Positions 7,086 through 51,179 of a DNA stretch of 64,000 bases are shown piece after piece. Position numbers and translations under genes: made by a program. Origin of the DNA: Candidatus Daviesbacteria bacterium. GTDB lineage: Bacteria; Patescibacteriota; Microgenomatia; Daviesbacterales; UBA10151. Below the pieces are notes generated by a model that saw only the letters and a list, made by a program, of their open reading frames with translations, had not been told where the DNA came from and did not search any database. The DNA is taken from contig JAQTPP010000003.1 of NCBI GenBank assembly GCA_028712705.1, positions 64,052 to 128,051 on the forward strand. The letters are read 5' to 3'. Every line of letters begins with the position of its first letter. Positions within the stretch are counted from its first letter, which is position 1.

Positions 7086-7157
7086 CTATAGGATAAATGT
7101 CCACTGGTAAACGCTAGTCGAACCATTATTCCTGATTTAACGTTTGAAGAATTACAG
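7083..7157. repeat. copy 3 of the about 70-bp repeated upstream element
   Basis: caactataggataaatgtccactggtaaacgctagtcgaaccattattcctgatttaacgtttgaagaattaca. Confidence 0.6.
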
Positions 7158-7193
7158 ATTTATACACAATTTCCTTATAGATTTTAGCTAAAC

Positions 7194-8801: not shown

Positions 8802-8827
8802 CGAAAGGTTAAAAATTATAAAGTCCA

Positions 8828-8878
8828 GAGGGGAGGATAATACACCCAATCCTTCGACGAGCTCAGGATTGGCGAACC
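8828..8878. other. conserved about 50-nt hairpin motif, copy A
   Basis: GGAGGATAATACACCCAATCC-loop-GGATTGGCGAACC. Near-identical flanks recur at 55163-55207. Both copies lie 80-90 nt 3' of a minus-strand tRNA. Confidence 0.5.
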
Positions 8879-19006: not shown

Positions 19007-20360
19007 CCTCCCAGTAATGTTTCTTGATGCCGGCTTTAGTCAGGATTGATTGCAGTTCCAGCATGGCAGTATATGTGGGAAGGATGAACAGTTTGCCTTT
19101 TAAGCCCATTCCAGCTTGTTTCAGAGCCTGTTTCAGGTCCGGTTGTATTTTAATTTCTTTAGGATTAAAATTGGCATATTTCAAGCGGAGCGCCAGATCA
19201 TTTGCCCTGGAACCGGAAGCAATTATTGTATAGTCCCTCGACTTCGCTCGTTCAGAAAGATTCGATGAATTTTGAATGAGTTCAAAATTCGCATCCCAGA
19301 TCCATGATACGTCTGTACCGTCCGCAATATTGTCATTTAATGCCAGAAGCATTCTGTCCCCGGGTTTGATATTTGGTGCAATAGTTTCAAAGACCTGGGT
19401 AGCTCCGGCCGGATTTTTGATCAGGAAAATATACCCCATGTATCCTACCTCGGAGGTAGGAGTACGATGAGACGTAGGGTTTAAATGGAATTTCTCGACC
19501 CTGCCAAAGGCAGGTGAATAGGTTTTCAAGGACAAAACCATTTCATCAGGATCTATATTTAACATTGTTCCTGCTGCAAAGGCAGCCAAAAAATCATAGA
19601 TATGGTAGATACCGGGAACCGGAAGATGGACGATGGAAGATTGATAATGGAGAGAAAGTGAGAATGAAATTCCGGTTAACCCGTTTGTTTTGACATTTTT
19701 TGCTTCAAAATCCAAGTTTTCGATTTCTTTCTTGTGAATAATTGATTCTCCGGCAATCGTGTAATCCTTGACACCAAATTTTTGAACTTTACCTCTAAAA
19801 CAGGCAGCCAGCTTTAATATGTTGGCATCGTCGCCGTTAACTAAAACCGCAGTTTCCGAAGAGAGCTTTTTTAGTGCCTGGCACCAGTTTTTGGTCACAG
19901 TATCAATTTCACCATAACGGTCAAGTTGATCACGGAAGACATTCAAAAAGATCACAACTTCAGGGTTTAGCTTTGGAGTAACGTTGTTGAAAGCTGCCTC
20001 ATCCAGTTCCCAAATCCCTAGGTCAAAATTTAGCCTGCAACCTTTCAGGTTGACGCACAGGTTGACGCATGAAATTAGAGTAGAGGCGATGCCGCGCTCA
20101 AGATTGGAACCGGTATGATTTCTGATAACTTTAAGTCCTGTTTCTTTTGCAAAATGGGCCAGCATTTTGGCAGTAGTGGTTTTGCCGTTAGTTCCGGTTA
20201 TCACTACATTTTTGGGGATTTTAGCAGCTAATTTTGCAACCAGATTCGGTTCGATAGACAGGGCATATAAACCCGGAGCAGCTGATCCTCCTCCGAGTTT
20301 AAAATTACGGGTGAGGAAAAAAATTAGTTTACCTACTAAAATGGCCAGAATAAATCGCAT
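18999..20360 (-). CDS. murT: lipid II isoglutaminyl synthase, Mur-ligase-like subunit MurT
   Basis: P-loop VITGTNGKTTTAKM, Mur ligase middle domain, DUF1727-like C-terminus. Likely start is the ATG at 20360 (MRFILAIL), 6 nt after TTATAAT. Confidence 0.8.
   Translation of the reverse strand: MRFILAILVGKLIFFLTRNFKLGGGSAAPGLYALSIEPNLVAKLAAKIPKNVVITGTNGKTTTAKMLAHFAKETGLKVIRNHTGSNLERGIASTLISCVNLCVNLKGCRLNFDLGIWELDEAAFNNVTPKLNPEVVIFLNVFRDQLDRYGEIDTVTKNWCQALKKLSSETAVLVNGDDANILKLAACFRGKVQKFGVKDYTIAGESIIHKKEIENLDFEAKNVKTNGLTGISFSLSLHYQSSIVHLPVPGIYHIYDFLAAFAAGTMLNIDPDEMVLSLKTYSPAFGRVEKFHLNPTSHRTPTSEVGYMGYIFLIKNPAGATQVFETIAPNIKPGDRMLLALNDNIADGTDVSWIWDANFELIQNSSNLSERAKSRDYTIIASGSRANDLALRLKYANFNPKEIKIQPDLKQALKQAGMGLKGKLFILPTYTAMLELQSILTKAGIKKHYWEDE
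19445..19482. repeat. palindromic repeat (family 2) inside the murT coding sequence
   Basis: CCTACCTCGGAGGTAGG palindrome followed by agtacgatgagacgtagggt; close homologue at 55398-55439. In frame: HRTPTSEVGYMG. Confidence 0.5.
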
Positions 20361-20372
20361 GTGAGCATTATA

Positions 20373-20405
20373 ACTAGTCACTAGTCACTAGTCACTAGTC
20401 ACTAG
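20373..20405. repeat. tandem heptanucleotide repeat (ACTAGTC) x 4.7
   Basis: Exact tandem copies immediately upstream of the murT -10 box and start. Confidence 0.9.
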
Positions 20406-27414: not shown

Positions 27415-28329
27415 TTACAGCTTGCTGATAAGAACTTGTATGCTGTCCCAATTATGAATTGATATAGGAATAACCTCTTTCTTGCCTATCTTTTTAAGTT
27501 TAGTTTCTTTAAGGTCTGATTTTGTTAGCAAAACGATCTCTTTTTTATTTAAAAGCTCAGGATTAAATTTTTTAAGCTCCTCTCTGATAATTTTATAATC
27601 CCTAAAGGGATCATCTGACTCAGAAGAAATGCAGTGAAGTAAAAGACCAACTTTTTCTATATGTTTTAAGAATTTATACCCTAAGCCTCTGCCTTCTGAA
27701 GCCCCTTCTATTAAACCTGGTATATCTGCTAAGACCTTACCATTTAAAACTCCCAGGTTTGGCTCCAAGGTCGTAAAAGGATAATCACCAATTTTAGCAT
27801 TAGCATTTGTAATTTCATTTAAAAAAGAGCTTTTGCCTGCATTTGGAAGTCCAATTAAACCAAAGTCTGCAATTAATTTGAGTTTTAGCTTTAATCCTTT
27901 TTCTTGTCCCCTAAGTCCCTTTTGAGCATATTTTGGGGTTGTATTGCTTGGAGATTTAAAGGATTCATTTCCCCTTCCTCCTAAGCCCCCTTTTGCTAAT
28001 AGTATTTCTTGACCTTCCTGCGTTAATTCAATCTCAGCACCCTCTTCATCTGTTAAAAAAGTTCCAACAGGCATTGTTAAAATTAGATCTTTTCCATTTG
28101 CTCCTGATCTTATTCCAGTTCCTCCACCTTCCCCATCTTCAGCCTCACAAACTTTTTTGGAAAGAAACTGCTTTAAGGCATATATATCAGCTGTAGCCCT
28201 CACTAAAACATCCCCACCTCTACCTCCATCCCCTCCATCAGGCCCCCCACCTTTTTTACCCCTAAAGGAAACAAGCCCTGCTCCACCATGCCCTCCTCTT
28301 ATAATAATTTCTGCTTCATCTACTAACAT
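27415..28329 (-). CDS. obg: GTPase Obg/CgtA
   Basis: Gly-rich Obg fold N-terminus (GGHGGAGLVSFRGKKGGGPDGGDGGRGGDV) and G domain (GLPNAGKSSF). Confidence 0.85.
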   Translation of the reverse strand: MLVDEAEIIIRGGHGGAGLVSFRGKKGGGPDGGDGGRGGDVLVRATADIYALKQFLSKKVCEAEDGEGGGTGIRSGANGKDLILTMPVGTFLTDEEGAEIELTQEGQEILLAKGGLGGRGNESFKSPSNTTPKYAQKGLRGQEKGLKLKLKLIADFGLIGLPNAGKSSFLNEITNANAKIGDYPFTTLEPNLGVLNGKVLADIPGLIEGASEGRGLGYKFLKHIEKVGLLLHCISSESDDPFRDYKIIREELKKFNPELLNKKEIVLLTKSDLKETKLKKIGKKEVIPISIHNWDSIQVLISKL

Positions 28330-36225: not shown

Positions 36226-37518
36226 TTATAGCACTGTTTTCACTGCATCAACTAAAGTTTGATTGTTAAAATATAAAAGCAGTTTTTGTGGCCATGCCGG
36301 ATCTTTAATGCTGATATCCGGGTCTACTCCCCGGCCCTCAATCGGCTGATTATCATCCCTTAAAGTTACAGAATGAACCAAAAACAGCGAGTATTTTTCG
36401 CTCTGGCTAATTTGATTATCCAAAGGGAAAACCCGCTCCACTGTTCCCCATCCTTTAGTAGGAATTCCTACTACCACTCCCGCATGATATTTTTTCAAAG
36501 ACGCTGTTATCATCTCGGCAGAAGATTGTGAGTTTTGGTCCACCAGTATTACTACCTGTTTATATCGAGAAAGGCTGGCTAGCTTATCCGCAGCAGTCTT
36601 AAACGGCAGATATTCGCCTTTATGGTAAAAATCAAACGCGTACTGGCCTTTTCCCAGGAAAAAACCTAAAAAGTAGGCAGTGGCATCAATGGCTCCGCCG
36701 ATATTTTCCCTAAGGTCGAAAATTAAGGTGTTGAGCTGTTGGTCTTTATAACTGTCAAAAGCTTTTTGAAATTCCTCCAAAGAGGTGGGTGAGAATTTTT
36801 TAAATTGTACATATAAAGTACCCGGCGGGACAATTTTTGCAAAAATAGTAGGTTCTACCTGATTTTGATCATATCTTTGTTTGGTATCTTTTTGTGTTAA
36901 AGTGTCCTTGGCATAAGTAATTTTCTTTAAGTTTTCCTTTGCTTCGGGTGATTTATCATTAGCTAATTTGGTAGCTTCTGTTTGATAAGCCTGTTGCACC
37001 GCCGCCTCAGAGGCTCCTTTGGCTAACCTTAAATCTTTATATAAATCTTTTTCCGGATTAATATTGGAAATAGTATTTTTAAGCTGCGCTTCTTGTTTTT
37101 CGGTAAACAACCCTGATCTGCCCTGGGGGGTTAATGAATTTAAAACCACTCCGGCAACGGAGACCAGGAATTTATTTCTTTGATCCTCATCCATGCCTGA
37201 GATTGATTTATTGATAGTTTCCAGCAGTTTTTCTTTGTTTTCAAATTTGGCAACGCCGGTACTGCCGCCATTTTTGTCTATTGATAATCTAAAAAGATCC
37301 AGCAGTTCGCCGTCAGAAATATTATTCCAATAATTTTCTTTAATCTTGTCATAGATTTCGGAGATGAAGCGAGCTTCCTGCTTCGCAGTAAAAACCTTTG
37401 GGGTATTTTTTTCATTATTTTCGACATACCGGTATCCAACACCAACACCCAAAGCAAAAACCGCTAAAAGTATAATAAGAGTCTTTGGAAAGGACTTAGG
37501 AATCTTAAATTTCACCAT
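36226..37518 (-). CDS. S41-family (C-terminal processing) peptidase-like protein
   Basis: 430 aa. N-terminal TM, DLRENIGG, Ser motif DQNSQSSAE, Lys motif IPTKGWG. Confidence 0.6.
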   Translation of the reverse strand: MVKFKIPKSFPKTLIILLAVFALGVGVGYRYVENNEKNTPKVFTAKQEARFISEIYDKIKENYWNNISDGELLDLFRLSIDKNGGSTGVAKFENKEKLLETINKSISGMDEDQRNKFLVSVAGVVLNSLTPQGRSGLFTEKQEAQLKNTISNINPEKDLYKDLRLAKGASEAAVQQAYQTEATKLANDKSPEAKENLKKITYAKDTLTQKDTKQRYDQNQVEPTIFAKIVPPGTLYVQFKKFSPTSLEEFQKAFDSYKDQQLNTLIFDLRENIGGAIDATAYFLGFFLGKGQYAFDFYHKGEYLPFKTAADKLASLSRYKQVVILVDQNSQSSAEMITASLKKYHAGVVVGIPTKGWGTVERVFPLDNQISQSEKYSLFLVHSVTLRDDNQPIEGRGVDPDISIKDPAWPQKLLLYFNNQTLVDAVKTVL

Positions 37519-37538
37519 CTTAGTATATAATAAAACAA

Positions 37539-38447
37539 GTGGATATTTTAACCATAATTTTAATAGTTTCCGGTCTGGTTTTATTTGAAACTATCTCTTC
37601 GGTGGATAATGCCATTATTAATGCCCAGGTTTTATCGACCATGGGAGCGAGGGCTAAAAGATGGTTTCTTTTTTGGGGTTTACTGATAGCCGTTTTTTTG
37701 ATAAGAGGATTGCTGCCTTTTTTGATAGTCTGGATTGCCAACCCTGATTTAGGGGTTGCGGGTATTTTGTCAGCGACTTTTTCAAGCGACCCTGCGGTGG
37801 TGGAAGCAATTGAGAAGTCAGCACCTATTTTGCTGATCGGCGGAGGCACCTTTTTGGTTTTTCTTTTTTTTCACTGGTTGTTTTTGGAAACTAAGAATTT
37901 TGGCCTTAGGGGTGAGCGGTTTTTGCTTTCTCAGGGCGTCTGGTTCTATGCGGTTGTCTCTGTAATTTTAGCCGTCATTGTTTGGTTTGCGCTAAAAGTA
38001 AATCCTTTAATGGCGTTTGGGGCAGTAGTTGGTTCAACTGCTTTTTTTATCACCCACGGGTTTAAGCAAAATGCCGAAGATCAGGAAAAGAAACTTTTTT
38101 CTACCACCAGGTCTGATTTGAGCAAGTTATTTTATCTGGAGGTAATTGATGCTACTTTTTCCATAGACGGGGTGATCGGAGCCTTTGCTTTTACCCTGGT
38201 AGTTCCTTTGATTTTACTGGGTAATGGAATTGGCGCTTTTGTTGTTCGAGAAGTTACAATTCATAATATCGAAAGAATTAAAAAGTATATATTTTTAAAA
38301 AACGGAGCCATGTATTCAATTTTCTTTTTGGGAGTAATCATGGTTTTGGATAGTTTTGGTTTTGATATTCCCTCGTGGCTGTCCCCTGTTGTAACAGCAC
38401 TAGTAGTAGGTTATTTCTTCCTAAAATCCAAAAAAGCCTTAGCTTAA
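37539..38447 (+). CDS. TerC/DUF475-like integral membrane protein
   Basis: 302 aa. SVDNAII motif near N-terminus; multiple TM helices. Confidence 0.55.
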   Translation: MDILTIILIVSGLVLFETISSVDNAIINAQVLSTMGARAKRWFLFWGLLIAVFLIRGLLPFLIVWIANPDLGVAGILSATFSSDPAVVEAIEKSAPILLIGGGTFLVFLFFHWLFLETKNFGLRGERFLLSQGVWFYAVVSVILAVIVWFALKVNPLMAFGAVVGSTAFFITHGFKQNAEDQEKKLFSTTRSDLSKLFYLEVIDATFSIDGVIGAFAFTLVVPLILLGNGIGAFVVREVTIHNIERIKKYIFLKNGAMYSIFFLGVIMVLDSFGFDIPSWLSPVVTALVVGYFFLKSKKALA

Positions 38448-38503
38448 AAAGTACGGTGTCAACCTATCCCACCCCAGGGGTGGGATACGCACACACAGTT
38501 ATT

Positions 38504-40174
38504 TTACCAGAAGAATTTGTTTGAGGTACTGATTCCAAAAAGCGCATTGCCCAAAGGGCTTGCTGGAAAAATCGCTAACCCCCTTTTTGCGAATTCTTGA
38601 GCCGATTCCAAGTTTCCGGTTTGACTTAGAAATAAAGAGAGTCGTAAATAAGAAAGATGAGAATCAAAGCGATACCTGCCAGGATCCAGCTTGGAAAGGT
38701 CAATAGGCTCCAGGGGGACGCCTTGCGAGGCTACGACATTGTTTTTTACTAGTATAATCATAAAATCATCTACATAAACTATTCTCCAATCAGGATCTTT
38801 AACTACTGAGGTTAAAAAAGCTTTTCCCCAGGGAGTTTGATCTGTGTGGGAAAAAACAATGGTCTTAAAGCCAATTTTTTGATCTAACTCTTTAAACTTT
38901 TGTGGATCAGATTGAGCTGGAATATATACATTCTGGAAAAATTCCTTAGGATACTCTCCGGGCCTGCCATCCACAAAGACTCTATATTTTGGCCAACCTC
39001 TGTAGGTAATATAGCTGCCAATATCAAAATTGTTAAAAACAGGTTGGGGTAAATTATTTTTTAAAACAAAATCCAAAGCATTCCTGCCGCTTTCTTTAAA
39101 TTCCAATTTTGGACGGTCGTCGCTGCTGGTGTATTTGTAATAATCCCCGTTTAGGTAAAAATAGCTTTCCAGAAGCAGCAGCGGAACTGTTATTATAGTA
39201 AAGAGTTTACGAAACAAGACGGGTTTGGGGATGCCGAAATTTTCCAAAATTGCCGGTAGTGAAATGAATACAAGATAAGGGAAGCTACGCACATTCGCTA
39301 GGGCAAGAGTCAGGCCAAAGCCGGCAAGAAGAAGATTTTTAATTAAAAGCCTTTTTTTAAACAAGGCAACTGCGGTTGATAATAAAATAGTTGCGGCAGC
39401 GAGTTTTACAAACAAAAAATTAGGGTTTCTAAAATTGATGCTTTCCAGGAGGAACATTGTCTGGTTTTCAACAATGGTGTATCCATAATTTTGGTTGAAA
39501 GTAAACGGGTTCAGAAAACCTGCTAAGCCACTGGGGTTGGCCAAACTTACTACAACCGATAGTCCAAAAATAAATACTAACAACTTCAGCTTTACACCCT
39601 TGGGGTGTAAACGGAGGTTTTGAGAGGCTAGATGAATTAGAAAAATGGCTTGTAAGCTTAGGCCTACAAAGAAATAGATGTGGGTATTGATCCAAACAAG
39701 CTGAATTATGGGCAGAAGGTAAAGTAATTTGGTAGGACTTTTTAAGTATTTCTCCAGTATGAAATAAGTGCTGGCTGTAAACAGAAAGCTGAAAATTTCC
39801 GGCCTAAGATCCGGCCTTTCCCTTAAAGTATGTAAAAAGATAAAACCAACAGGCAGCAGCAGATACTGGTTTTTAGGTATTGTTTTTAGAACCAGCCAAA
39901 CAGACAGTAAAAATATAACAACTTTCAAAACCAAAACTGCTTGCAGACCGATTGTTTGTTGTCCCAAGTAAACCAGTAGTTCAAAAAACCAGTGACTATT
40001 TATAAAAGGAAAATCTGGATAGGTATAAGAAAACAGGTTAGTTAGGGGTACGTTTTTAGTTTGCCAGATAATTTCACCCAATTTTAGGTGCCGTCCTAAG
40101 TCCTGGTCAAACGAGTGGTCGGTTCTAAAAAGAAAAGAAAAAACAAAGAAAAGAAGCAAAATTTTTGCCCACAT
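38504..40174 (-). CDS. large polytopic membrane protein
   Basis: 556-aa ORF, more than 10 predicted TM helices, soluble C-terminal domain. Confidence 0.55.
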   Translation of the reverse strand: MWAKILLLFFVFSFLFRTDHSFDQDLGRHLKLGEIIWQTKNVPLTNLFSYTYPDFPFINSHWFFELLVYLGQQTIGLQAVLVLKVVIFLLSVWLVLKTIPKNQYLLLPVGFIFLHTLRERPDLRPEIFSFLFTASTYFILEKYLKSPTKLLYLLPIIQLVWINTHIYFFVGLSLQAIFLIHLASQNLRLHPKGVKLKLLVFIFGLSVVVSLANPSGLAGFLNPFTFNQNYGYTIVENQTMFLLESINFRNPNFLFVKLAAATILLSTAVALFKKRLLIKNLLLAGFGLTLALANVRSFPYLVFISLPAILENFGIPKPVLFRKLFTIITVPLLLLESYFYLNGDYYKYTSSDDRPKLEFKESGRNALDFVLKNNLPQPVFNNFDIGSYITYRGWPKYRVFVDGRPGEYPKEFFQNVYIPAQSDPQKFKELDQKIGFKTIVFSHTDQTPWGKAFLTSVVKDPDWRIVYVDDFMIILVKNNVVASQGVPLEPIDLSKLDPGRYRFDSHLSYLRLSLFLSQTGNLESAQEFAKRGLAIFPASPLGNALFGISTSNKFFW

Positions 40175-40244
40175 GTAAAGATATTACCATCTTTCTCCCT
40201 TGTCAAAATAGGATTAATTATAACTTGTCTTACGCTCAGTCCGA

Positions 40245-40280
40245 TTGCGTGATTTATTGCGCGATTATTGCGTGATTATA
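40245..40280. repeat. three tandem 12-bp repeats (TTGCGYGATTWA) upstream of fic, overlapping its promoter
   Basis: ttgcgtgattta-ttgcgcgattat-tgcgtgattata, then TATAAT at 40284-40289. Confidence 0.7.
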
Positions 40281-40295
40281 TGGTATAATATGTAT

Positions 40296-41354
40296 ATGTT
40301 AAAGCCTCAATATAGTATTACTTCTACCATACTTTCCCGGATTGCCGAGATTGCTGAAATAAAAGCCGCTGTTGAAAGGTCAAGGGTTCTGCCCTTAAAC
40401 GAAGCACAATTGCGTCGTCAGGCAATACTCCGTATGGCCCATACCTCAACCAGCATTGAGGGAAATAAACTTGCCCAATTTGAAGTGGGAAAGGTATTGG
40501 AGGGAAAAACCGTAAGGGCTTCTCAAAAAGATATCTTGGAAGTAGAAAATTATTATAATGCGTTAAAACTCCTTGATGAAATGGCTAAAAAGAAAGGAGA
40601 TATTACGCTTGAGGAAATTTTACATTTGCATAAGGTGATAATTTCCGGTTTGGCGGACAAAGAAAAAGTCGGTAAATTTAGACCTGCCGATGTGTATGTT
40701 TTGGATGATTTAGGAGATGGCCGTGAAATGGTCAGATTTAAGGCTCCTCCTGCCAGTAAGGTGAAAAAAATGGTTGATGATTTACTGAAGTGGTTTAAGG
40801 AATCGAAAAAAGAAGGTGTTCATCCAATCATCAGGGCCGGCATCCTGCACTTGCAATTTGTGACTATCCATCCATTTACAGACGGCAATGGTAGAGTAGC
40901 AAGACTTTTAACCCAGCTTCAGCTATACAGGGATGGCTGGGATTTTAGGAAAATCCTGGTTTTGGAAGACTACTACAACAGAGATAGAATGTCTTATTAC
41001 AGCGCTGAAAACAGGGCTCAAGGCAAAAGCTATTCGGCAAATATGGATTTTACCTTTTGGCTTGAATATTTTACCACCGGATTTTTGATTGAGGCAAGAA
41101 AAGTGCTGGAACAAATTCAATCCATTGGATTTGGCAAGGTTAGTAAAAAGAGCGAGCAAATTTTTCTTGATCGCGACCAAATCCAAATTATGGACTTTTT
41201 AACCACAACAGGGAGGATAACTTCAGATGACGTGGTAGATATTTTAAAGGTGGCTAAAAGAACGGCACAGCTTAAACTTAGAAATCTAACGGATAAAGGC
41301 TTACTTAAATTAAACGGTAAAGGTCCCAGTTCCTACTACATTCTTGCGCGATAA
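40296..41354 (+). CDS. Fic-family protein (AMPylase-type) with C-terminal winged-helix domain
   Basis: Fic motif HPFTDGNGRVARLL. Start taken as the ATG at 40296, 6 nt after TATAAT; the ORF track starts at 40245. Confidence 0.85.
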   Translation: MLKPQYSITSTILSRIAEIAEIKAAVERSRVLPLNEAQLRRQAILRMAHTSTSIEGNKLAQFEVGKVLEGKTVRASQKDILEVENYYNALKLLDEMAKKKGDITLEEILHLHKVIISGLADKEKVGKFRPADVYVLDDLGDGREMVRFKAPPASKVKKMVDDLLKWFKESKKEGVHPIIRAGILHLQFVTIHPFTDGNGRVARLLTQLQLYRDGWDFRKILVLEDYYNRDRMSYYSAENRAQGKSYSANMDFTFWLEYFTTGFLIEARKVLEQIQSIGFGKVSKKSEQIFLDRDQIQIMDFLTTTGRITSDDVVDILKVAKRTAQLKLRNLTDKGLLKLNGKGPSSYYILAR

Positions 41355-41380
41355 GTTGCGCGATTATTGCGCGATTATTT
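41344..41380. repeat. three tandem 12-bp repeats downstream of fic, overlapping its last codons
   Basis: ttgcgcgataag-ttgcgcgattat-tgcgcgattatt; same unit as 40245-40280. Confidence 0.7.
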
Positions 41381-41456
41381 TGGGGTATTTGCTATTTTGC
41401 GGGAGATATGTGATACTATTTATGTGAGTAGAGTGTATTTAGTGTTTTTACAGTAA

Positions 41457-41493
41457 TTCACCTCCACAAATCTAAAAAAGAAAGAGAGGTGAA
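41457..41493 (+). promoter_or_regulatory. candidate SD-sequestering hairpin in the RRM-gene leader
   Basis: TTCACCTCC (41457-41465) is complementary to GAGAGGTGAA (41484-41493), which is the Shine-Dalgarno sequence for the TTG start at 41500. Confidence 0.4.
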
Positions 41494-41499
41494 TTTTTT

Positions 41500-41760
41500 T
41501 TGAACAATAAGAAATTATTCGTAGGTTCTTTGCCTTGGGGTGTTGATGATGCCAAGCTTGGCGAAATTTTTGCTCAAGCCGGTAATGTTGTCAGCGCACA
41601 AGTTGTTAAAGACCGCGAAACAGGAAGATCAAGAGGATTTGGTTTCGTTGAGATGTCAACCGATGAGGAAGCTCAAAACGCAGTCAAAAACTTAAACGGT
41701 GCAGATGTTGATGGTCGTAAGATCGTAGTTAACATTGCCAGACCAAGAGAAGACCGTTAA
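41500..41760 (+). CDS. RRM-type RNA-binding protein
   Basis: 86 aa. RNP2 KLFVGSL and RNP1 RGFGFVEM. Confidence 0.85.
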   Translation: MNNKKLFVGSLPWGVDDAKLGEIFAQAGNVVSAQVVKDRETGRSRGFGFVEMSTDEEAQNAVKNLNGADVDGRKIVVNIARPREDR

Positions 41761-41845
41761 AATTTTTCCCGGTTAACTTGTAGTACAAGTAAAGTTAGAA
41801 TCTGTGCTTTTTAGCAATGAAAGGCATGGGTTTTAGCAAGATTTT

Positions 41846-42538
41846 TCAGGAGGAAGCTATTTCCAGCTTTGGAAGCAGTTTTTTAGAGGCCAGGAATGAA
41901 AGCGTGTATTTTACTGCCAGGTAAGATACGGTAATTCCTGTGGCAAAAAGCAACCTTTCGCAAACTACTATCGGAGGCAAGTTTTGCCAAACAGTCACCG
42001 GCAGATTTAAGGCATAAAGGAAAGCAGTACTGCCTACGGCATGAGCCGTGAAAGTAGCGCCCAAACTTCTCAGGAATAGATTGTTTCTTTTAAAATAAGC
42101 GGCAACCGGAATCCACCAAAACATTAAAGGATAATAAGGTACTTGTTTGCCAATCGGGTGCGCTATAAAGAAAAGAATACAAAGGACAGGAACAGCCAAA
42201 ATCCACCTTCCCTGGTATTTTTTGTTGGTAATGACCGCAAAATAGAAAACCGCAAAAAGCGTCGGGAAAAGTCTGATAATTGTGCTTGTCGTAAGCGGAG
42301 TTTGTTTAATCCAGATATTGACTGCTTCTACGGCAAATACAGAGGCTATTCCTAAGGCAGGCCCTAAAAAGCCTCCTGTCATCGGTCCGAAGAAATCAAA
42401 CATGGTAAAAGATACATTAGAACCCATAACTTTATTAAAAGGAATCTGAAAGGCAATAAAGCCTAAGATAGAAAAAAGCGCTAAAAAGAATATTTTTTTC
42501 TGGAGGTTTGACATAGCAAGGAGTTTAGAATAATGCAC
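41846..42538 (-). CDS. integral membrane protein, function unknown
   Basis: 230-aa ORF, 6 predicted TM helices. Confidence 0.5.
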   Translation of the reverse strand: MHYSKLLAMSNLQKKIFFLALFSILGFIAFQIPFNKVMGSNVSFTMFDFFGPMTGGFLGPALGIASVFAVEAVNIWIKQTPLTTSTIIRLFPTLFAVFYFAVITNKKYQGRWILAVPVLCILFFIAHPIGKQVPYYPLMFWWIPVAAYFKRNNLFLRSLGATFTAHAVGSTAFLYALNLPVTVWQNLPPIVVCERLLFATGITVSYLAVKYTLSFLASKKLLPKLEIASS

Positions 42539-42581
42539 GTTCTTTCAAATGTCAAGGATTATTTGATACAATAGCTGGTGA

Positions 42582-42664
42582 GCCGCGGTGGTGGAATGGT
42601 ATACACGCAGGACTTAAAATCCTGTAGCCGCAAGGCTGTGTGGGTTCGACTCCCACTCGCGGCA
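42582..42664 (+). tRNA. tRNA-Leu (anticodon TAA)
   Basis: GCCGCGGTGGTGGAATGGTATAC..., anticodon loop ctTAAaa, long variable arm, T-loop TTCGACT. Confidence 0.85.
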
Positions 42665-42681
42665 CCGGGGTTGGATAATCA

Positions 42682-42753
42682 CGGGGACTAGTTCATCGGT
42701 AGAACGCCCGCTTTGGGAGCGGGAAGCACAGGGTTCAATTCCCTGGTCCCCGA
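42682..42753 (+). tRNA. tRNA-Pro (anticodon TGG)
   Basis: CGGGGACTAGTTCATCGGTAGAAC..., anticodon loop ttTGGga, acceptor CGGGGAC/GTCCCCG. Confidence 0.85.
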
Positions 42754-42789
42754 CTGAAAGTGAATCCGCAAAATTGAGCCTGGATTGGC

Positions 42790-42815
42790 TCTGCGCGGGT
42801 GGGGGCGCGCAGAGC
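42790..42815 (+). other. GC-rich perfect hairpin in the 380-bp noncoding region after tRNA-Pro
   Basis: CTCTGCGCGggtggggCGCGCAGAG. Further downstream an inverted repeat AATGGCGCAA...TTGCGCCATT (about 42921-42975). Confidence 0.4.
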
Positions 42816-43152
42816 TCTGCAAAGCCCTGTTTGTAAACTGGGACGAGAGCCGCCGGTTAAAAAGAACAAAAAACGGGAAGACACGCAAAAATTTAAAAGA
42901 ACTTTTCCGCCCTTTTATCATAAATGGCGCAACCAGCGGACTCAACAGGAAATGTCTCCCTATTGTCTGATTGCGCCATTAAAAAAGACATTTCCAAAAA
43001 ATGTTGAGTCCACCAAAAACTTACCAGTTTTCTTGGGCTAAATCAACTGGAATTTACTATTGCAAACAAGATTATATTATGCCTAACTAATCTTAGGGAC
43101 TATTTATATTACTATCATTACTATATTATTAATGTAGTTATTGCGATCTATT

Positions 43153-46100
43153 ATGCTATGCCTGCTATGCCATATGCTTACCAAGACAAGACAAGACAAG
43201 ACAAGACAAGACAATTATGACTTCTTAAATTTTTCAGTTGTCAAATTTTATCTAAAATTCTTTTTAATTGCAATTTTTCTAGTTGGTACATTTTTAATAC
43301 CAATGAAGGTATTGGCAGTTTCTTGGTGGAATACAAGCTATCAGTATCGGCAAAACATTAAAATAACTTCCTCAAATGCTATTATTCCTCAAAATGGTAC
43401 CCTTACTACCACCATTGATACTCAATCTTTAATAAATGCCGGAAAGCTGAGAGGAGACGGAAAAGATTTAAGACTGGTTTATTATAACGGCAGCACTAAT
43501 TCAGAAATTGACTACACGATTAATTTTCCTTCTACTCGTTTACTAAATAATATCGGAAGTTCTGATACTGCTGTTTACATAGATGACGGAGATGCTTTGC
43601 CAGCCAGCGGAAAAGTACAAATAGACGATGAAATTATCAGTTATACCGGAGTTAGCCAAACTGCCGTTGCAACACCTTCCAGTAATAATGCGGGCAATAT
43701 CGGACCTGTCACAAATATTAACGACGGCGATATTACGACCGCCAATAACAATATCGGAGATTTCGTGCCTGCTGGTTGGTATGAATTGGACTTTCCGGGT
43801 CAGGTAACTTTTAACGAGGTAAGATTTAAAGAGGCATCATGGGCGGACGGATGGATAGAATCATCTGTTGTCCAATATTGGGATGGTGACAGCTGGGAAT
43901 CTGTTGGCAATGCAACGTTAACTCCCACGCCACCAGCAGCTTGGGGAGATAAAAACTTATCCTGGTATAAATCAAGTTTTGATAGCGTTACCTCGACAAA
44001 AATGAGGCTTTCCGTTACACAAGGAGGGGCGGCTCTATTTTCCGGTTTATATGAGTTGGAAGTGTTTAATAGCCCTTCTGCCACCAATCTTGCCAGACAA
44101 ATATGGCAGCTGACCGGCGTATCAAGAGGCGCTGATAGTACGACTGCGGCATCGCATACCTCATTAGCTCAAGTCAGAAAAGCTTTAATTTCCTCAACAA
44201 CCACCGAGATTGTTTTCAAAGTACAGTCGAGAATTGAGACAGATAAGAGTGATTCTGGTTATTATCTTTATTATGGCCACTCCGATGAAAATACCAGCCC
44301 CGCAACAAATTCCAGTAATGTGTATTTATTTGCGGATGAATTTACCAGCAGCAGCCTGAATGCCTCCCTAACCTTAGCTAACACGACTGGCTTAGCAGTG
44401 ACGGAAAACAATGCCCACAGCAGTTACTATCATATTAATTTACCTTACGGATATGTCTTTGATTATATTACCGGTACTAACAATTCTGTAACTTTATACC
44501 ATCCTTCACCGTTTCTGGATTGGACAATAGAGACTTCTTTGGATACTTTCGGTAATTTTGCTAAACACGCTGGAATTGCCGTCAGCTTTGGCAAAACCGT
44601 TTGGGATACTTATTTGTATGGAGTGTGGTGTGGCTATCTTGATGAAGTGCTTGGGTCTGCTTGTCGAATTAGGGTTGATAACGCGAATTCAACTCTCAAT
44701 CTTTTATCAACTTCATTTACCGGTGCATATGGCATTGCCGGACATGTGCAGTTGAAAGTCAGAAAAATTAGCGATACTTATTATTTTGATTATCGTTTAA
44801 ATAATAGTTCCGATTTTACTAATTTAGGATCTTTAAAAACATGCTGTAGCACTAATGATTATGGTATTGATCCGGTGAATATCGGGTTATTTAGTAAAGA
44901 CTGGGTGGATACAAAGCAACTTGATGATTCATATTTTGATTATTTGCGCGTTGCAACTAACACACCTTCGGCCAACTATTCCGTAAATTTTGGTACAGAA
45001 AGAACTCAGGCGACAACAGGCTCTGTCAGTACCGGTAATTCTTCTTTAACTACCACTAACCCAATTATTGTTCCAGGTCACGATACACTTTCACCAATTA
45101 CTCTAACTCTCAGGGACAGTTATGGCGATCCAATTAGTGGTAAACAAATCACATTTACTTCTTCCAGATCAGGCGATAGTTTTTCTGCATCTTCTGGTAC
45201 AACTGATGTTAACGGCCAACTGACTACTAATTTAACCGCTTCTACCACTGCCGGGACTTCCAATATTACCGCCACCGATAGCGACGGGAATGCCGTTACT
45301 GCCACCAGTTTAATTACAGTCCAAAGCATAGAGCCTATAGGATTTGATCTCTACAACAATTTGTATAGGTTGCCTTATCTGGATCCCAATCTACAAACCT
45401 TACAAACATCATCCGTAGATCTTAATCAGCTGAATGCTGACGGCGGTCCTGCCGTTGGTGTTAGCAAATTTTTATATAAAGATAGCAATGATGAATATGT
45501 TATCTTGGATGAAAAAGGACCTGGAATTCTTTATCGATTTTGGATGACAAAAGACGCAGGGCTTGAAGCCGATTTAGGGAACATAAGGTTTTATCTAGAT
45601 GGTTCTGCAACTCCTGCTTTAGATACTAACGTAAATACTCTTTTTGGTGGGAGCTATCAAAATCTAGCATTCCCTATTGTTTCTAACAGATGGAATGCTG
45701 CAGGAGGTTTCCATTCATTTTTACCAATTACATTTGCCAGTTCCTTGAAAATTACAACAACGAACAATACCAACTATTACTACAATATTACCTACCAAAA
45801 ACTTCCTTCTAATGCATCTCTAACTTCTTATACTACCAGTGATAGTAATACCAAGTTATTAAACCTATTTAATTCAGCGGGGCTGGACCCGAAATCAACC
45901 AGCGGTAATACAACTCTGACCGGGTCAACTGCTTTAGCCGATGGAAATACAGCTACAATTGTTAATTTGTCAGGTAACGGGTCAATTCAGAGTTTGAAAC
46001 TGACATTTAATCCAAAAACCAAAACAGTCCTTAACGGAACATATTTACAAATGTATTGGGATGGGGAATCAACGCCAAGTGTTAATGTCCCAATAGGATA

Positions 46101-48927
46101 TTTCTTTGGAACGAGTGAAGGTACATTCAGGGTAAGAAGCATGTTTGTCGGATACGATGATTATAACGACCAATTTTACGTCTATTTTCCGATGCCATAC
46201 GGGTCAAGTGCGGTCATAAAATTAACAAATAGCAGCGGGATTGATATCACCGCAGTTTCTTATGCAGCAGATTATAAAACTAGTGTTTACGAAAATGTCG
46301 GTAAAGAGGCAGTTTATTTTAAGGCTAATTATGTGAGTGATACGCCGGCCACAGGCCAGAATTTGATTGCTTTGGACACAAGCGGGAGAGGCAGAATAGT
46401 CGGATTCCTAAATGACCAGGGCGGCCCGGCTGAAGGGATGGAGGGTAATGAAAGAGTCTACATAAACGCAAACAAAAGCCCTCAAATTGAAGGAACGGGC
46501 ACGGAAGATTTTTTTAATGCGGCTTGGGGATTTGAGGGTCTCAATTTTCTAAAACCTTTAAGCGGAAATCCGTATGGTGCTTTCGCTTCTACCCCAATTA
46601 CTATGTATACCATTATGCCGGGACACAGTTTTAATTACGAAAACGGGGTTAAGTTTGAGCTTCAGCATGGACCTACCAGCAACATTGTTATTCCCTATAA
46701 TGCCGTTACTCTTTATTATGGATCATCAATTCCGGGAATTTCCCTTACCGATACCCTGGATGTAGATAACAGCTCTTCTGAAACCTCCCACAGCTATTCA
46801 AAAACAAACCAAACCTCCAGTGGTAGCCAAACCTATACTTATCCCGGGTCTGTTACAACCAGTGTTGCAGATGACGGGAGAGTTTTGACAGGAACAAGCC
46901 AATTTACCGCGAGTATCTCAAGTACCAACTTAGGTGTTATTTTACGAAGAAGATTAGATTATGGCACTGCCAACCAGACTGCAACGGTATCTGTTGATGG
47001 TACGGATGTTGGAACTTGGTATGATGCGGGCAGTAATAGTGTTAATAAATGGAGGGATTCAAATTTTTGGATCCCTTCAACATATACGGATGGGAAAAGC
47101 AGTATTACTGTCAAGATTACCAGTACAGACGGCAATGCCTGGAATGAATATTACTATTGGGTTTATTCCATTGACAATTTACTGGAAGCTCCAACTGTTT
47201 CAGCAGTGTCCTCTTCCCCAACTTCTTCCGCTACGACAATCACTTGGGCGACTAATAAGACTGCTTCTTCTAAAATCGATTATGGTTTAACCTCATCTTA
47301 TGGCAGCAGTACTACAGAGACTGACATCTCTACTCGTGTATCAAGTCACTCTGTTTCTCTTTCAAATCTGGTTGCCTGTACGACTTATCACTATCGAGTT
47401 AGATCGGTGGATGCTGCCAGTAACGAAACAATTGATAGTGATAACACTTTTACTACAACAGGCTGTACCGGTTCGGCAAGCGTTTCCTCTCAAGCTTCGT
47501 CCAATATTACCGCTGCTTCGGGAGGATCAGTCAGTTTACTTAGTAGCGGCAAGGGACTTAGTTTAATTGTTCCCGCTTCTTTTGCCGGTTCTGATGCTAA
47601 TTTTCAGATTAAACAACTGGAAAAAACAGCAGCTTTAGCCACAACCTCTGTTCCCAGTTCCGGTATATCTTCCGGAGGATACGGTTTAATCGGCAATTAT
47701 ATTTACCAGTTGGGCGCTTTAACAGATTTAGCTACTTCTTTATCCACTTTCAATCAACCCATTACCATAACTATGACTTATGGATCATCCGATGTGACAA
47801 GTATTGATGAATCTACTCTGAAGATATTCAGATGGGACGGAAGTTCCTGGCACCAACTTTCCGGCTGTAGTGTTGATACATCAGCTAAAACAGTTAGCTG
47901 TAGTACTTCCAACTTTTCTACTTTTGGATTGTTTGGCCAGACTACCACTCAGGCTCCAGCGCCTGCCTCAGCACCGTCTTGTAATGATATTACTCCAACG
48001 GGTATCCCTAATCTTTTCCAAATTTCAACCACCGGCAGTAGCGCCAAACTGACATTTACCACCTTTTCCTCCGGAGTAACTGGCTACAATATCTTTTATG
48101 GCTATACTTTGGGAGACGAGAGATTTAGTAGTAATGTTGATTACACAGGATCACTTTGGGTGCTAGATACCACTATCAATAACCTTGCCCCGAATACCAC
48201 CTATTACTTTAAGGTGAGGGCGAAAAATGGTTGTACTGCCGGTAGTTGGTCCAGTAGCCTTTCCGCCAAAACTCTCAATCCGGTGGAGTTTTCTAAATTA
48301 GAAATTGTTTCTTCTGAGCTGACACCCCAGACCAAAACAGAAGAAAGCTTAGACAACTGTTCTACATACACCGTACAGTCTGGTGATACGCTTTGGTCGA
48401 TAGCATCTCGACTTTTAGGAGATGGTAGTAAATACAAAAATCTTATTAATCAAAACAATGATAAATATCCCTCACTGGAAAACTCGAATAATTTAAAAGT
48501 AGGATGGGAGTTGAAAGTAAATTGTGAGAAACAGGAAGAAACAGGAGAAACCCAAAAACAAAGTGGCTATGATGTAAAAGTTAAAATTATGGACACTAAC
48601 AAAAAACCTGTTGAAGGAGCAACAGTTACCCTGCACTCCACACCCCAAACAACTAAAACAGATAAAGATGGTACTGCTCTATTTCATAATGTGGAACAGG
48701 GAGACCATAAAGTATTAATTGCCTACAGTGGTTTTCAGGGAGAACAATCCATAAATCTGACAGGAGATGTTAAAGAGTTTGATCTGAATGTGACTGTCAA
48801 ACCTCAAAGTGTGCTTTTATCGCCGATAGTAATAGGAATTGTTTCTGCTATGGCAGTAGTGATTGTAGTTCTAGGTTTTCTTTTAATGAGATCCAAAAAC
48901 ACAATAAAAAATATAAGCAAGATTTAA
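43153..48927 (+). CDS. giant multidomain cell-surface protein (DUF2341-like, discoidin-like, DUF2961-like, FN3, LysM, C-terminal TM anchor)
   Basis: 1928-aa ORF; ATG at 43153 (the ORF track uses TTG at 43141). N-terminal hydrophobic signal. SWWNTSYQYRQNI...DGKDLRLV (DUF2341-like), YELEVF (discoidin-like), GTEDFFNAAWGF, two FN3-like modules, LysM (YTVQSGDTLWSIAS), C-terminal TM LLSPIVIGIVSAMAVVIVVLGFLLM. Confidence 0.8.
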   Translation: MLCLLCHMLTKTRQDKTRQDNYDFLNFSVVKFYLKFFLIAIFLVGTFLIPMKVLAVSWWNTSYQYRQNIKITSSNAIIPQNGTLTTTIDTQSLINAGKLRGDGKDLRLVYYNGSTNSEIDYTINFPSTRLLNNIGSSDTAVYIDDGDALPASGKVQIDDEIISYTGVSQTAVATPSSNNAGNIGPVTNINDGDITTANNNIGDFVPAGWYELDFPGQVTFNEVRFKEASWADGWIESSVVQYWDGDSWESVGNATLTPTPPAAWGDKNLSWYKSSFDSVTSTKMRLSVTQGGAALFSGLYELEVFNSPSATNLARQIWQLTGVSRGADSTTAASHTSLAQVRKALISSTTTEIVFKVQSRIETDKSDSGYYLYYGHSDENTSPATNSSNVYLFADEFTSSSLNASLTLANTTGLAVTENNAHSSYYHINLPYGYVFDYITGTNNSVTLYHPSPFLDWTIETSLDTFGNFAKHAGIAVSFGKTVWDTYLYGVWCGYLDEVLGSACRIRVDNANSTLNLLSTSFTGAYGIAGHVQLKVRKISDTYYFDYRLNNSSDFTNLGSLKTCCSTNDYGIDPVNIGLFSKDWVDTKQLDDSYFDYLRVATNTPSANYSVNFGTERTQATTGSVSTGNSSLTTTNPIIVPGHDTLSPITLTLRDSYGDPISGKQITFTSSRSGDSFSASSGTTDVNGQLTTNLTASTTAGTSNITATDSDGNAVTATSLITVQSIEPIGFDLYNNLYRLPYLDPNLQTLQTSSVDLNQLNADGGPAVGVSKFLYKDSNDEYVILDEKGPGILYRFWMTKDAGLEADLGNIRFYLDGSATPALDTNVNTLFGGSYQNLAFPIVSNRWNAAGGFHSFLPITFASSLKITTTNNTNYYYNITYQKLPSNASLTSYTTSDSNTKLLNLFNSAGLDPKSTSGNTTLTGSTALADGNTATIVNLSGNGSIQSLKLTFNPKTKTVLNGTYLQMYWDGESTPSVNVPIGYFFGTSEGTFRVRSMFVGYDDYNDQFYVYFPMPYGSSAVIKLTNSSGIDITAVSYAADYKTSVYENVGKEAVYFKANYVSDTPATGQNLIALDTSGRGRIVGFLNDQGGPAEGMEGNERVYINANKSPQIEGTGTEDFFNAAWGFEGLNFLKPLSGNPYGAFASTPITMYTIMPGHSFNYENGVKFELQHGPTSNIVIPYNAVTLYYGSSIPGISLTDTLDVDNSSSETSHSYSKTNQTSSGSQTYTYPGSVTTSVADDGRVLTGTSQFTASISSTNLGVILRRRLDYGTANQTATVSVDGTDVGTWYDAGSNSVNKWRDSNFWIPSTYTDGKSSITVKITSTDGNAWNEYYYWVYSIDNLLEAPTVSAVSSSPTSSATTITWATNKTASSKIDYGLTSSYGSSTTETDISTRVSSHSVSLSNLVACTTYHYRVRSVDAASNETIDSDNTFTTTGCTGSASVSSQASSNITAASGGSVSLLSSGKGLSLIVPASFAGSDANFQIKQLEKTAALATTSVPSSGISSGGYGLIGNYIYQLGALTDLATSLSTFNQPITITMTYGSSDVTSIDESTLKIFRWDGSSWHQLSGCSVDTSAKTVSCSTSNFSTFGLFGQTTTQAPAPASAPSCNDITPTGIPNLFQISTTGSSAKLTFTTFSSGVTGYNIFYGYTLGDERFSSNVDYTGSLWVLDTTINNLAPNTTYYFKVRAKNGCTAGSWSSSLSAKTLNPVEFSKLEIVSSELTPQTKTEESLDNCSTYTVQSGDTLWSIASRLLGDGSKYKNLINQNNDKYPSLENSNNLKVGWELKVNCEKQEETGETQKQSGYDVKVKIMDTNKKPVEGATVTLHSTPQTTKTDKDGTALFHNVEQGDHKVLIAYSGFQGEQSINLTGDVKEFDLNVTVKPQSVLLSPIVIGIVSAMAVVIVVLGFLLMRSKNTIKNISKI
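43182..43214 (+). repeat. pentanucleotide microsatellite (CAAGA) x 6.6 inside the 5' coding region of the giant gene
   Basis: Exact tandem repeat, translated as TKTRQDKTRQDN. It lies between the start codon and the signal-peptide hydrophobic core. Confidence 0.9.
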
Positions 48928-49024
48928 GTTTCTTGTCTTTTCCGTTACGCCAGAGGCGGGACTATAAATAATAAAAATCGCGCGCTCTTAAAAAAAATAG
49001 ATGTATTGCTTTTAGCAAAAAATA

Positions 49025-49100
49025 CCAGAGCAAGGCCGAAGGCCGAGCGGACAATGAAGTCCCGCCAAGCGAAGCGCGGCGGGGCTACCGAAGCGACTTA
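49025..49100. repeat. GC-rich hairpin element in a convergent intergenic gap (likely bidirectional terminator)
   Basis: CCCGCCaagcgaagcgcGGCGGG hairpin plus GCGAAGCG-type repeats, in AT-rich surroundings. Confidence 0.4.
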
Positions 49101-50171
49101 AAGGTTATTAGTACCAACTGCCTCCGAGATATTTTTGTAGCCGTCTTTTTTAAGAAGCTTTACTAATCCCTGGTTAATTTCGGAAATTACTTGGGGCCCC
49201 TCAAAAATCATTCCTGTTATCAGTTCTACAAGCGATGCCCCAAGTTTAATCTTTTTATAGGCGTCTTCTGCCGAAAAAACTCCTCCTGCTCCGATGATGA
49301 CATATTTCCCCCTGGTTTTTTGATGAATTTCTTGGATCTGATGATTTGATAAATCTTCTACTGCTTTTCCGCTTAATCCTCCTTTGTGATTTTTTTGCTT
49401 GGTCAGATTAGTACAAATAAACCCTGCCACTTTATGTTTTTTTACTACCTCAAGAATTCCATCAAGCTCCTGATTTGTTAAATCAGGCGGCATTTTTATA
49501 AAAATAGGCTTATCAGTCGGAATTTTATCTATTTGAAGCAGTAGTTTGTGAAGTTTTTCCGGGTCGGAAAAAGGGCTGCCGCCAAACGCATTGGGACAAC
49601 TGATATTAATGTCAAAAATCCGGCCGATACCGGTAAAATGCCGGTATGCCTTAAGATAATCCCTGATACCTGCTTCTTCTTCAATCGTATCCTGGCTATT
49701 GGTTTTACCGATACTGGTAATAACGGGGATGGTAAATTTTTCCTTTTCCAGCCTGCTTGAAATCGTTTCACAGCCGTCATTTTTGAGGCCGTAATAGACC
49801 AGCAAGCTTTTGGATTCCTTTAATCGCCAAAGGCGGGGTTTGGGATTGCCGGAACACGCCTCACCTGTGATTGTGCCGATTTCGGTAAAGCCAAATCCAA
49901 CCGAAGGTAAAATTTGTGTGAGCCTGGCATTTTTATCAAATCCTGCAGCCAACCCGACAGGGTTATTAAAATTTATCCCTAAAATTTTCTGCTCCAAAGA
50001 GGGATGGGAATAAGTAAGAAAAAAGGCGGTAATGCTTTTTGTGATTTTGCTTTTACCCAGAAGTATGCCAACCCAGGTTATAAAATCATGGATTGATTCA
50101 GGATCTATCTTGAAAAAGACTGGTTTTAACAGGTTTTGATAAAGAAAACGGATGAAATTGGTTTTTATCAT
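49098..50171 (-). CDS. pyrD: dihydroorotate dehydrogenase (quinone), class 2
   Basis: 357 aa. N-terminal membrane-association helix, GFDKNA, FGFTEIGTIT, C-terminal GAGGV...GASLVE. Confidence 0.85.
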   Translation of the reverse strand: MIKTNFIRFLYQNLLKPVFFKIDPESIHDFITWVGILLGKSKITKSITAFFLTYSHPSLEQKILGINFNNPVGLAAGFDKNARLTQILPSVGFGFTEIGTITGEACSGNPKPRLWRLKESKSLLVYYGLKNDGCETISSRLEKEKFTIPVITSIGKTNSQDTIEEEAGIRDYLKAYRHFTGIGRIFDINISCPNAFGGSPFSDPEKLHKLLLQIDKIPTDKPIFIKMPPDLTNQELDGILEVVKKHKVAGFICTNLTKQKNHKGGLSGKAVEDLSNHQIQEIHQKTRGKYVIIGAGGVFSAEDAYKKIKLGASLVELITGMIFEGPQVISEINQGLVKLLKKDGYKNISEAVGTNNL

Positions 50172-50200
50172 TATAGATTTAGATGTTATAATACTACTGT

Positions 50201-50938
50201 ATGAGAAGTCTTGCCACTTTTATCATTCCCATTCTGGCGTTTTTTGTGATTTTACTCATTTACACTAAAGCTTTTGGGCCAATCCCCTTTTCGGTAAATA
50301 GTGTAAACACAACCAAAACAGATACTTTTAATGTTTCGGGTGAAGGTGCTGCGGTTGCAAAACCGGATATGGCAATTTTGGTTGTCGGCATTCAGGCGGA
50401 GGCTAGTACAGTCAAAGCCGCGCAAGACCAGATCAACTCCATCATCAATAATGTGGCAGCTGCCATTAAAAAATTGGGCGTTGAACAAAAAGATATTCAA
50501 ACAGCAAGCTATAATATTAATCCCGCTTACGATTATACAGGCGGTTCCCAGCGCATTACCGGTTACTCGGCTTCAACTAATTTGTCAATAAAAATCCGCA
50601 GTATAGATCTTACCGGTCAAGTGATAGATTCGGCTACAGGAAACGGAGCAAATCAAATAGGAGGAATTAGTTTTGATGTAGATGATAAAAGCAAACTAGA
50701 AGATGAGGCCAGACAAAAAGCAGTGGTTGCGGCCAAAAAGAAAGCTGAAAGTGCTGCTAAAATTGCCGGATTTAAGTTGGGCAGAATAGTTAATTACTCG
50801 GAAAACTTTGACTTAAACCCTCAGCCGTTACGGATGGCAGTCGGGGCACCGGCTGAAAGTGTAAACTTAAAAACAGCAGTGGAACCCGGGTCTTCTGAGA
50901 TTAAAGTAATAGTTACCCTAAGCTACGAAATTTACTGA
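50201..50938 (+). CDS. SIMPL/DUF541 domain protein
   Basis: 245 aa. N-terminal TM; overall similarity pattern to 26-kDa periplasmic SIMPL proteins (recalled, not searched). Confidence 0.6.
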   Translation: MRSLATFIIPILAFFVILLIYTKAFGPIPFSVNSVNTTKTDTFNVSGEGAAVAKPDMAILVVGIQAEASTVKAAQDQINSIINNVAAAIKKLGVEQKDIQTASYNINPAYDYTGGSQRITGYSASTNLSIKIRSIDLTGQVIDSATGNGANQIGGISFDVDDKSKLEDEARQKAVVAAKKKAESAAKIAGFKLGRIVNYSENFDLNPQPLRMAVGAPAESVNLKTAVEPGSSEIKVIVTLSYEIY

Positions 50939-50994
50939 TATCCATTATTTTCTTGAAAAAAGCAAGTGTTTTTGAGTACAATAGAATTTACTTC

Positions 50995-51066
50995 GCGGGT
51001 GTAATTCACCGGTAGAATGCCACTTTTCCAAAGTGGACGTAAGGGGTCCGACTCCCCTCACCCGCT
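50995..51066 (+). tRNA. tRNA-Gly (anticodon TCC), unusual T-loop
   Basis: GCGGGTGTAATTCACCGGTAGAATG..., anticodon loop ttTCCaa, acceptor GCGGGTG/CACCCGC. The T-loop reads TCCGACT (C at position 55). Confidence 0.65.
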
Positions 51067-51179
51067 CTTGATCAACAAAAATTCCCATTTCGGGAGTTTT
51101 TTTGAGCATGGGTGAGTTTGGAATCGGATTCTAGTCCGAAGGACGGTCCGCCATCCCGCCATGGCGGGATGATCTGCGT

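Follow-up and report, generated by a model that had tools for sequence, protein, structure and literature searches.

A pentanucleotide repeat at the signal peptide of a giant Daviesbacteria surface-protein gene: a candidate contingency locus

The repeat, the gene and its product

The window analysed here is a stretch of 64,000 nucleotides (64 kb) from contig JAQTPP010000003.1 of Candidatus Daviesbacteria (assembly GCA_028712705.1), and it carries on its plus strand a gene for a giant multidomain surface protein. Read from ATG 43174, the product is identical to NCBI MDD5147333.1, a "DUF2961 domain-containing protein" recorded on a 129,964-bp contig of a Candidatus Daviesbacteria metagenome-assembled genome (MAG). 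Daviesbacteria are members of the Candidate Phyla Radiation (CPR). Close to the 5' end of the gene stands a tandem repeat of the unit CAAGA, which a sequence-only reading of this DNA had proposed as a phase-variation switch for the surface protein. The features of the locus are collected in Table 1.

The tract is 33 nt long and reads (CAAGA)6.6 without a mismatch. Tandem Repeats Finder reports the same interval, with a period of 5, 6.6 copies, 100% matches and a score of 66. Both results bear out the earlier claims that the repeat is exact and that it sits in the N-terminal coding region of an open reading frame (ORF) of 1928 aa, which spans 43141-48927 when counted from a TTG; the NCBI-annotated start at ATG 43174 gives 1917 aa. 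The 15-mer (CAAGA)3 has four overlapping matches within the tract and none elsewhere in the window, where 0.02 would be expected (from 100 dinucleotide shuffles). Apart from the CAAGA tract, a count of perfect repeats across the window turned up a single other long one, (ACTAGTC)4.7, also of 33 nt; the longest perfect tract of unit 4-7 across 100 shuffles was 17 nt. The CAAGA tract is real and non-random, and its unit length is not divisible by three.

Table 1. Features of the repeat locus and in-frame starts at different repeat numbers (positions in the window)
Feature	Position	Strand	Basis
Strain-specific island of 6.3 kb: 5' region, repeat and gene	42808-49065		comparison with sister MAG
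Strong 20-bp hairpin in the island, ~140 nt 5' of the ATG cluster	42938-43011	+	minimum free energy -28 kcal/mol, z = -4.4
TATTAT, best -10-like hexamer near the ATG cluster	43149-43154	+	sequence; by analogy with other window genes
Cluster of four ATGs in two frames	43153-43176	+	sequence, frame analysis
Gene for 1917-aa multidomain surface protein MDD5147333.1	43174-48927	+	Pfam, NCBI identity
Perfect pentanucleotide repeat (CAAGA)6.6	43182-43214	+	sequence, Tandem Repeats Finder, census, three-frame translation
Signal-peptide hydrophobic core FFLIAIFLVGTFLIP, then MKVLA	43258-43317	+	Kyte-Doolittle, translation
Second perfect microsatellite (ACTAGTC)4.7 (TAGTGAC on the minus strand)	20373-20405	-	perfect-repeat census
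3.6, 6.6 (assembled state) or 9.6 units	in-frame starts: ATGs 43153 and 43174		locus rebuilt in silico
4.6, 7.6 or 10.6 units	in-frame starts: ATGs 43158 and 43167		locus rebuilt in silico
5.6 or 8.6 units	in-frame starts 5' of the signal peptide: none		locus rebuilt in silico

In the gene frame the N-terminus of the protein reads LRSIMLCLLCHMLTKTRQDKTRQDNYDFLNFSVVKFYLKFFLIAIFLVGTFLIPMKVLAVSWWNTSYQYR. Its Kyte-Doolittle maximum, 2.63, falls at residues 29-43 (counted from ATG 43174), 3' of the repeat and in the hydrophobic core. By the -3/-1 rule, cleavage after V-L-A, just before the start of the SWWNTSYQYR domain, is plausible. Pfam recognizes Big_1, DUF2961, two fn3 or purple-acid-phosphatase-N-like domains, LysM and CarboxypepD_reg, among 12 families listed for the whole protein, while the first 600 aa have no family match. 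At the C-terminus a hydrophobic (transmembrane) helix is followed by a basic tail. The signal-peptide-like N-terminus, the domains of extracytoplasmic type, the predicted C-terminal anchor and the location in an accessory island all fit a surface-facing product, and a large membrane-anchored protein of this architecture needs an N-terminal export signal.

Start codons and reading frames

All four ATGs of the cluster lie within 24 nt just 5' of the tract. Two of them, 43153 and 43174, share the frame of the gene as assembled; the other two, 43158 and 43167, are in the +2 frame, which leaves one frame without any start codon. The +2-frame pair owes its existence to a 9-bp tandem duplication, TGCTATGCC x2, at 43154-43171, inside the cluster. 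When the locus was rebuilt in silico with 1.6 to 11.6 CAAGA units and scored for in-frame starts, the simulated unit numbers fell into two frame classes with a start codon and one without. The sequence-only reading had held that a change of one unit shifts the frame and turns the gene ON or OFF. Loss of a unit does leave no start in frame; gain of a unit does not simply turn the gene off, because ATGs 43158 and 43167 then come into frame. The structural requirements of the classical contingency architecture that the sequence-only reading described all hold: the repeat is perfect, its unit is not a multiple of three, it lies inside the reading frame and 3' of the start codons (given that the signal peptide is required, as the domains imply), and start codons in more than one frame stand directly 5' of it, those of the alternative frame being predicted to work. 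A simple ON/OFF switch does not follow, since a start is available in two frame classes and missing from just one.

It might be argued that the start codon is ATG 43303 or another, non-canonical one 3' of the repeat, which would place the tract in a promoter or 5' untranslated region (UTR) where it tunes transcription or mRNA stability. In favour of this, the TTTAAT found 4 nt before ATG 43303 loosely recalls the TATAAT-N6-10-ATG arrangement seen at other genes, and the hexamer TATGCT at 43173-43178, directly 5' of the tract, is -10-like. Repeats in 5' UTRs are also reported to be able to drive phase variation in H. influenzae (PMC12721329). Yet ATG 43303, the next in-frame ATG, lies beyond the hydrophobic core, and a product begun there would lack the signal peptide in spite of its extracytoplasmic domains and C-terminal anchor. 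The 54 codons 5' of 43303 are open (P ~0.02 by local composition) and look like a signal peptide, encoding a charged region, then the hydrophobic core, then V-L-A. A tract of 33 nt is also too long for a promoter spacer, and ATG 43217, directly 3' of the tract, is out of frame and meets a stop after three codons. No in-frame ATG, GTG or TTG occurs between the end of the tract and the core, so translation that gives an exportable protein must begin 5' of the repeat. The earlier judgement that a start 3' of the repeat is unlikely was sound, and we regard this alternative as highly improbable.

The tract encodes the same five-residue period, K-T-R-Q-D, in all three plus-strand frames, as three CAAGA units make 15 nt and yield this period from each frame. 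The period, which can equally be written QDKTR, carries a net charge of +1 per unit. Because it is identical in each frame, both potentially ON classes would retain a positively charged n-region.

The idea that the tract is part of a stable RNA leader structure was rejected, as folding of the 43141-43310 transcript showed no unusual degree of structure (z = +1.3). A search of Rfam over the region returned only tRNAs, and the region is thus not explained by any known RNA element. The hairpin farther 5' in the island is likewise without a match in Rfam; a second, 14-nt inverted repeat (42923-42936 / 42967-42980) is interleaved with it.

Most first-in-operon genes of the window lack a Shine-Dalgarno sequence and have, 6-10 nt ahead of the ATG, a box resembling TATAAT, for example at the starts at 9228, 27415-28329(-), 29289, 38504-40174(-), 50201 and 52640. 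This combination suggests that leaderless or very-short-leader mRNAs are widespread across the window. A Shine-Dalgarno sequence of the GAGAGGTG type is present at a small number of genes, among them the RRM gene at 41500.

Tract length and the case for switching

One indirect sign of length variation comes from a second assembly. In the Logan (k=31) assembly of the source run SRR22315508, contig SRR22315508_356857 (7,839 bp) is 100% identical to window 43185-51023; it opens with exactly 30 nt (k-1) of pure CAAGA repeat, followed by unique flank, and at its other end breaks in a tRNA-Gly. We simulated the de Bruijn graph at k=31 with the 33-nt tract alone or together with a shorter or longer allele. 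The tract alone produced no branch and an added shorter allele produced breaks at other positions, while with an added longer allele (+1 or +3 units) the right-hand unitig began with precisely the sequence seen in the Logan contig. Among the simulated cases, only an added longer tract reproduces the start of the Logan contig, and the graph break may thus reflect heterogeneity of CAAGA length in the reads. The left-hand Logan contig, sought via an 80-aa ORF in 42799-43041, was not on record, and the contig with the upstream 222-aa gene ends in tRNA-Leu. Logan contigs of this run tend to end at tRNA genes (tRNA-Leu ~42625, tRNA-Gly ~51023).

Repeats are classic sites of assembly error, and the Logan assembly does not span the CAAGA tract, which might suggest that the tract or its copy number is an artefact of the MAG assembly. 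Against this, the two assemblies, made independently, share the right flank and at least 30 nt of uninterrupted repeat, a 33-nt tract is well within a single Illumina read, and the given copy number keeps the 1917-aa ORF open. There is, in our estimation, only a very slight chance that the tract is artefactual.

The second long repeat of the window allows a comparison between genomes. The heptanucleotide (ACTAGTC)4.7 occupies the space that separates a 198-aa ORF from murT (18999-20360, minus strand) and abuts a TATAAT-N6-ATG. In a sister Daviesbacteria MAG (GCA_028715175.1, reached via neighbouring proteins), the corresponding tract (7325-7360 of retrieved locus L021) has 3.6 copies with one mismatch, versus 4.7 perfect copies here. 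This difference in copy number between two Daviesbacteria genomes means that microsatellite lengths do change in the lineage. A Logan contig (L023) stops after 30 nt of the heptanucleotide tract, which matches only the simulation with a longer allele. As a spacer-length switch for murT the heptanucleotide was rejected: with any number of copies, the repeat itself places a -35-like GTGACT at a constant distance of 17 nt from TATAAT.

We propose a model in which the CAAGA tract is a simple-sequence-repeat (SSR) contingency locus that switches translation, so that an accessory surface protein is stochastically ON, alternatively ON or OFF, and we put the probability of this reading at about 60%. 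Slipped-strand mispairing at replication would gain or lose CAAGA units, presumably at a useful rate, and each 5-nt step would put the signal peptide and the 1,870-aa ectodomain in another frame relative to the start codons 5' of the tract. With 3.6, 6.6 or 9.6 units the gene would be ON, presumably via ATG 43153 or 43174. With 4.6, 7.6 or 10.6 units it would be alternatively ON via ATGs 43158 or 43167, possibly at a different level. With 5.6 or 8.6 units it would be OFF, as the exported protein could not be made. Both ON classes would present a positively charged n-region before the same hydrophobic core. It is tempting to speculate that such switching could benefit the cell, for example in evasion of phage or host. 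The architecture, as read from the DNA, is fully consistent with a contingency locus.

A number of observations weigh against this proposal. The graph break may stem from stutter in the library, or a different (CAAGA)n tract of at least 7 units elsewhere in the metagenome may have caused it. Most penta- and tetranucleotide switches that have been proven are longer than six units. The spacing of TATTAT, in a leaderless-type pattern, fits none of the four ATGs cleanly, and the surface-protein gene has no Shine-Dalgarno sequence. In every collection searched the gene is a singleton, with neither an ortholog nor a second copy, and no other gene with a CAAGA repeat was found with the N-terminus containing eight QDKTR units as a protein query or among 21 fetched loci. 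The N-terminal 600 aa had no match in a homology search; the full-length protein recovered itself and partial matches to fn3-type domains only; and an exact-product look-up of the gene found nothing. The genome contig collection yielded one Chloroflexi protein that shares an internal domain and no ortholog; the WW(N/D)T.Y.YRQNI motif of that protein is internal and does not adjoin a signal peptide. From the metagenome contig collection came 14 loci, all of them internal domains of other giant proteins, and the best of these has no repeat and no gene start at the matching region.

These points bear on a more conservative explanation, in which the repeat is a static coding microsatellite, recently and neutrally expanded in a tolerant n-region, the gene is simply expressed and unit changes are too rare to act as a switch. 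The tract has 6.6 units only, the allele in the assembly reads in frame from the annotated start, and the collections searched hold no direct evidence of variation. The second long repeat, at the housekeeping gene murT where a switch is implausible, also indicates that long repeats occur in the window without an obvious switching role. On the other side, an exact 33-nt tract is unexpected barring ongoing turnover, and if frame changes had no consequence, ATGs of a second frame directly 5' of it would be difficult to account for. By the simulation, the Logan graph break needs longer tracts in the same sample. The (GACGA)4 tract of H. influenzae hsdM switches at a high rate with only four units (PMC2651432), so six units are not too short in principle. 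We consider a static repeat unlikely on this evidence, though it deserves serious attention.

Known switches, genomic setting and wider meaning

By analogy, the Neisseria opa genes appear to be the closest counterpart in mode of working. In opa, as in the locus described here, the pentanucleotide units sit within the 5' coding region, after the start codon and ahead of the mature part of a surface protein. Slippage of the CTCTT units in the opa leader shifts the frame and switches expression, at a rate of ~1e-3 per cell per generation (PMC3960869), and slippage would shift the frame in the same way here. The repeat of the Daviesbacteria gene is likewise a pentameric coding repeat inside the leader-peptide coding region. 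In opa the repeat codes for the hydrophobic stretch of the leader, whereas the CAAGA units code for the charged n-region and lie outside the hydrophobic core. Opa is small and resides in the outer membrane, in contrast to the Daviesbacteria product with its 1917 aa, many domains and anchor at the C-terminus. The opa tracts are as a rule longer. About 11 opa copies share the repeat, whereas one locus was found here: neither the rest of the window nor the 21 other loci fetched contain (CAAGA)3. The proteins also show no kinship: the Pfam scan lists no Opa family, and the full-length search gave no more than the protein itself and partial domain matches.

The lic1 and lic2-type loci of H. influenzae have (CAAT)n preceded by several ATGs in different frames and more than two expression states. 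They resemble the Daviesbacteria locus in having start codons of several frames just 5' of a non-triplet repeat. The lic repeat is a tetranucleotide, CAAT, in genes for cytoplasmic lipooligosaccharide-modifying enzymes of a proteobacterial pathogen; the unit here is CAAGA, the product is an exported multidomain surface protein, and the alternative-frame ATGs are only predicted to work. Judged from sequence, with an unrelated protein, a repeat in the n-region and no paralogous loci seen, the gene belongs to neither the Opa nor the lic family. It is a credible Opa/lic1-like contingency locus, which would represent a known mechanism in a new lineage.

Two further systems share parts of the arrangement. 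The hsdM gene of H. influenzae has a short pentanucleotide coding repeat with frame-shift phase variation (PMC2651432), and it differs in being a restriction-modification gene, with no surface protein and with the repeat outside a signal peptide. For nanH3 of Gardnerella, an extracellular sialidase gene, a preprint (bioRxiv 10.1101/2020.09.16.300947) reports slipped-strand mispairing. The protein is alike in being a large extracellular and suspected cell-wall-associated glycosidase of a non-proteobacterial organism, and unlike in that its host organism is a human-associated actinobacterium.

The gene and its repeat occupy a variable position in the genome. Directly after tRNA-Leu and tRNA-Pro (42582-42754) begins the island that holds them. 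Its flanks are syntenic in the sister MAG, with ~87% nucleotide identity over window 36370-42807 and 49067-51067, and the same slot there (6386-8829 of locus L018) contains a 2.4-kb cassette encoding a D12-class methyltransferase, a 276-aa protein and a helix-turn-helix protein, which by sequence is restriction-modification-like. The left breakpoint of the slot lies inside a GC-rich hairpin at 42788-42815. Since 42808-49065 is swapped for this cassette in the sister genome, the gene and its switch module form an accessory island in a variable slot.

In a broader context, SSR phase variation is, to our knowledge, documented almost entirely in host-adapted pathogens and commensals. A full-text literature search found no report linking phase variation with the CPR or Patescibacteria. 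We tentatively suggest, at somewhat less than even odds, that this is the first SSR contingency locus described in the CPR (Patescibacteria): a three-state translational switch, with two start-codon frames plus OFF, for a giant surface protein that is specific to the strain and encoded in a swappable slot beside tRNA genes. Diversity-generating retroelements are known from CPR-type bacteria. If the proposal is correct, these tiny, host-dependent environmental bacteria would use pathogen-style stochastic surface switching besides those elements. Uncultured ultra-small bacteria would then hedge their bets on a giant surface protein, which bears on host attachment and phage escape, and single consensus genomes from metagenomes could conceal ON and OFF subpopulations. 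The mechanism itself is textbook, so the gain would be one of taxonomic and ecological reach and not of new principle.

Two other candidate repeats in the window were rejected. The (AAAAG)5.4 at 40128-40155, considered as a second switch, is imperfect and encodes the Phe/Leu-rich signal peptide of a minus-strand 556-aa ORF. Six homopolymer runs of 8 nt were set aside as a signal, since by our own estimate base composition predicts ~6.

The window has 14 tRNA genes spread across it. To the left of the island, an array of three 11-mers with a TTGCGYGATT core (40244-40277) lies just 5' of the -10 box of a Fic-family gene (40296-41354). A second array with this core stands at the 3' end of the same gene (41344-41376) and matches, over 33/34 nt, a stretch just 5' of the Fic gene of the sister genome. 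From their sequence and position, these arrays may be operator sites.

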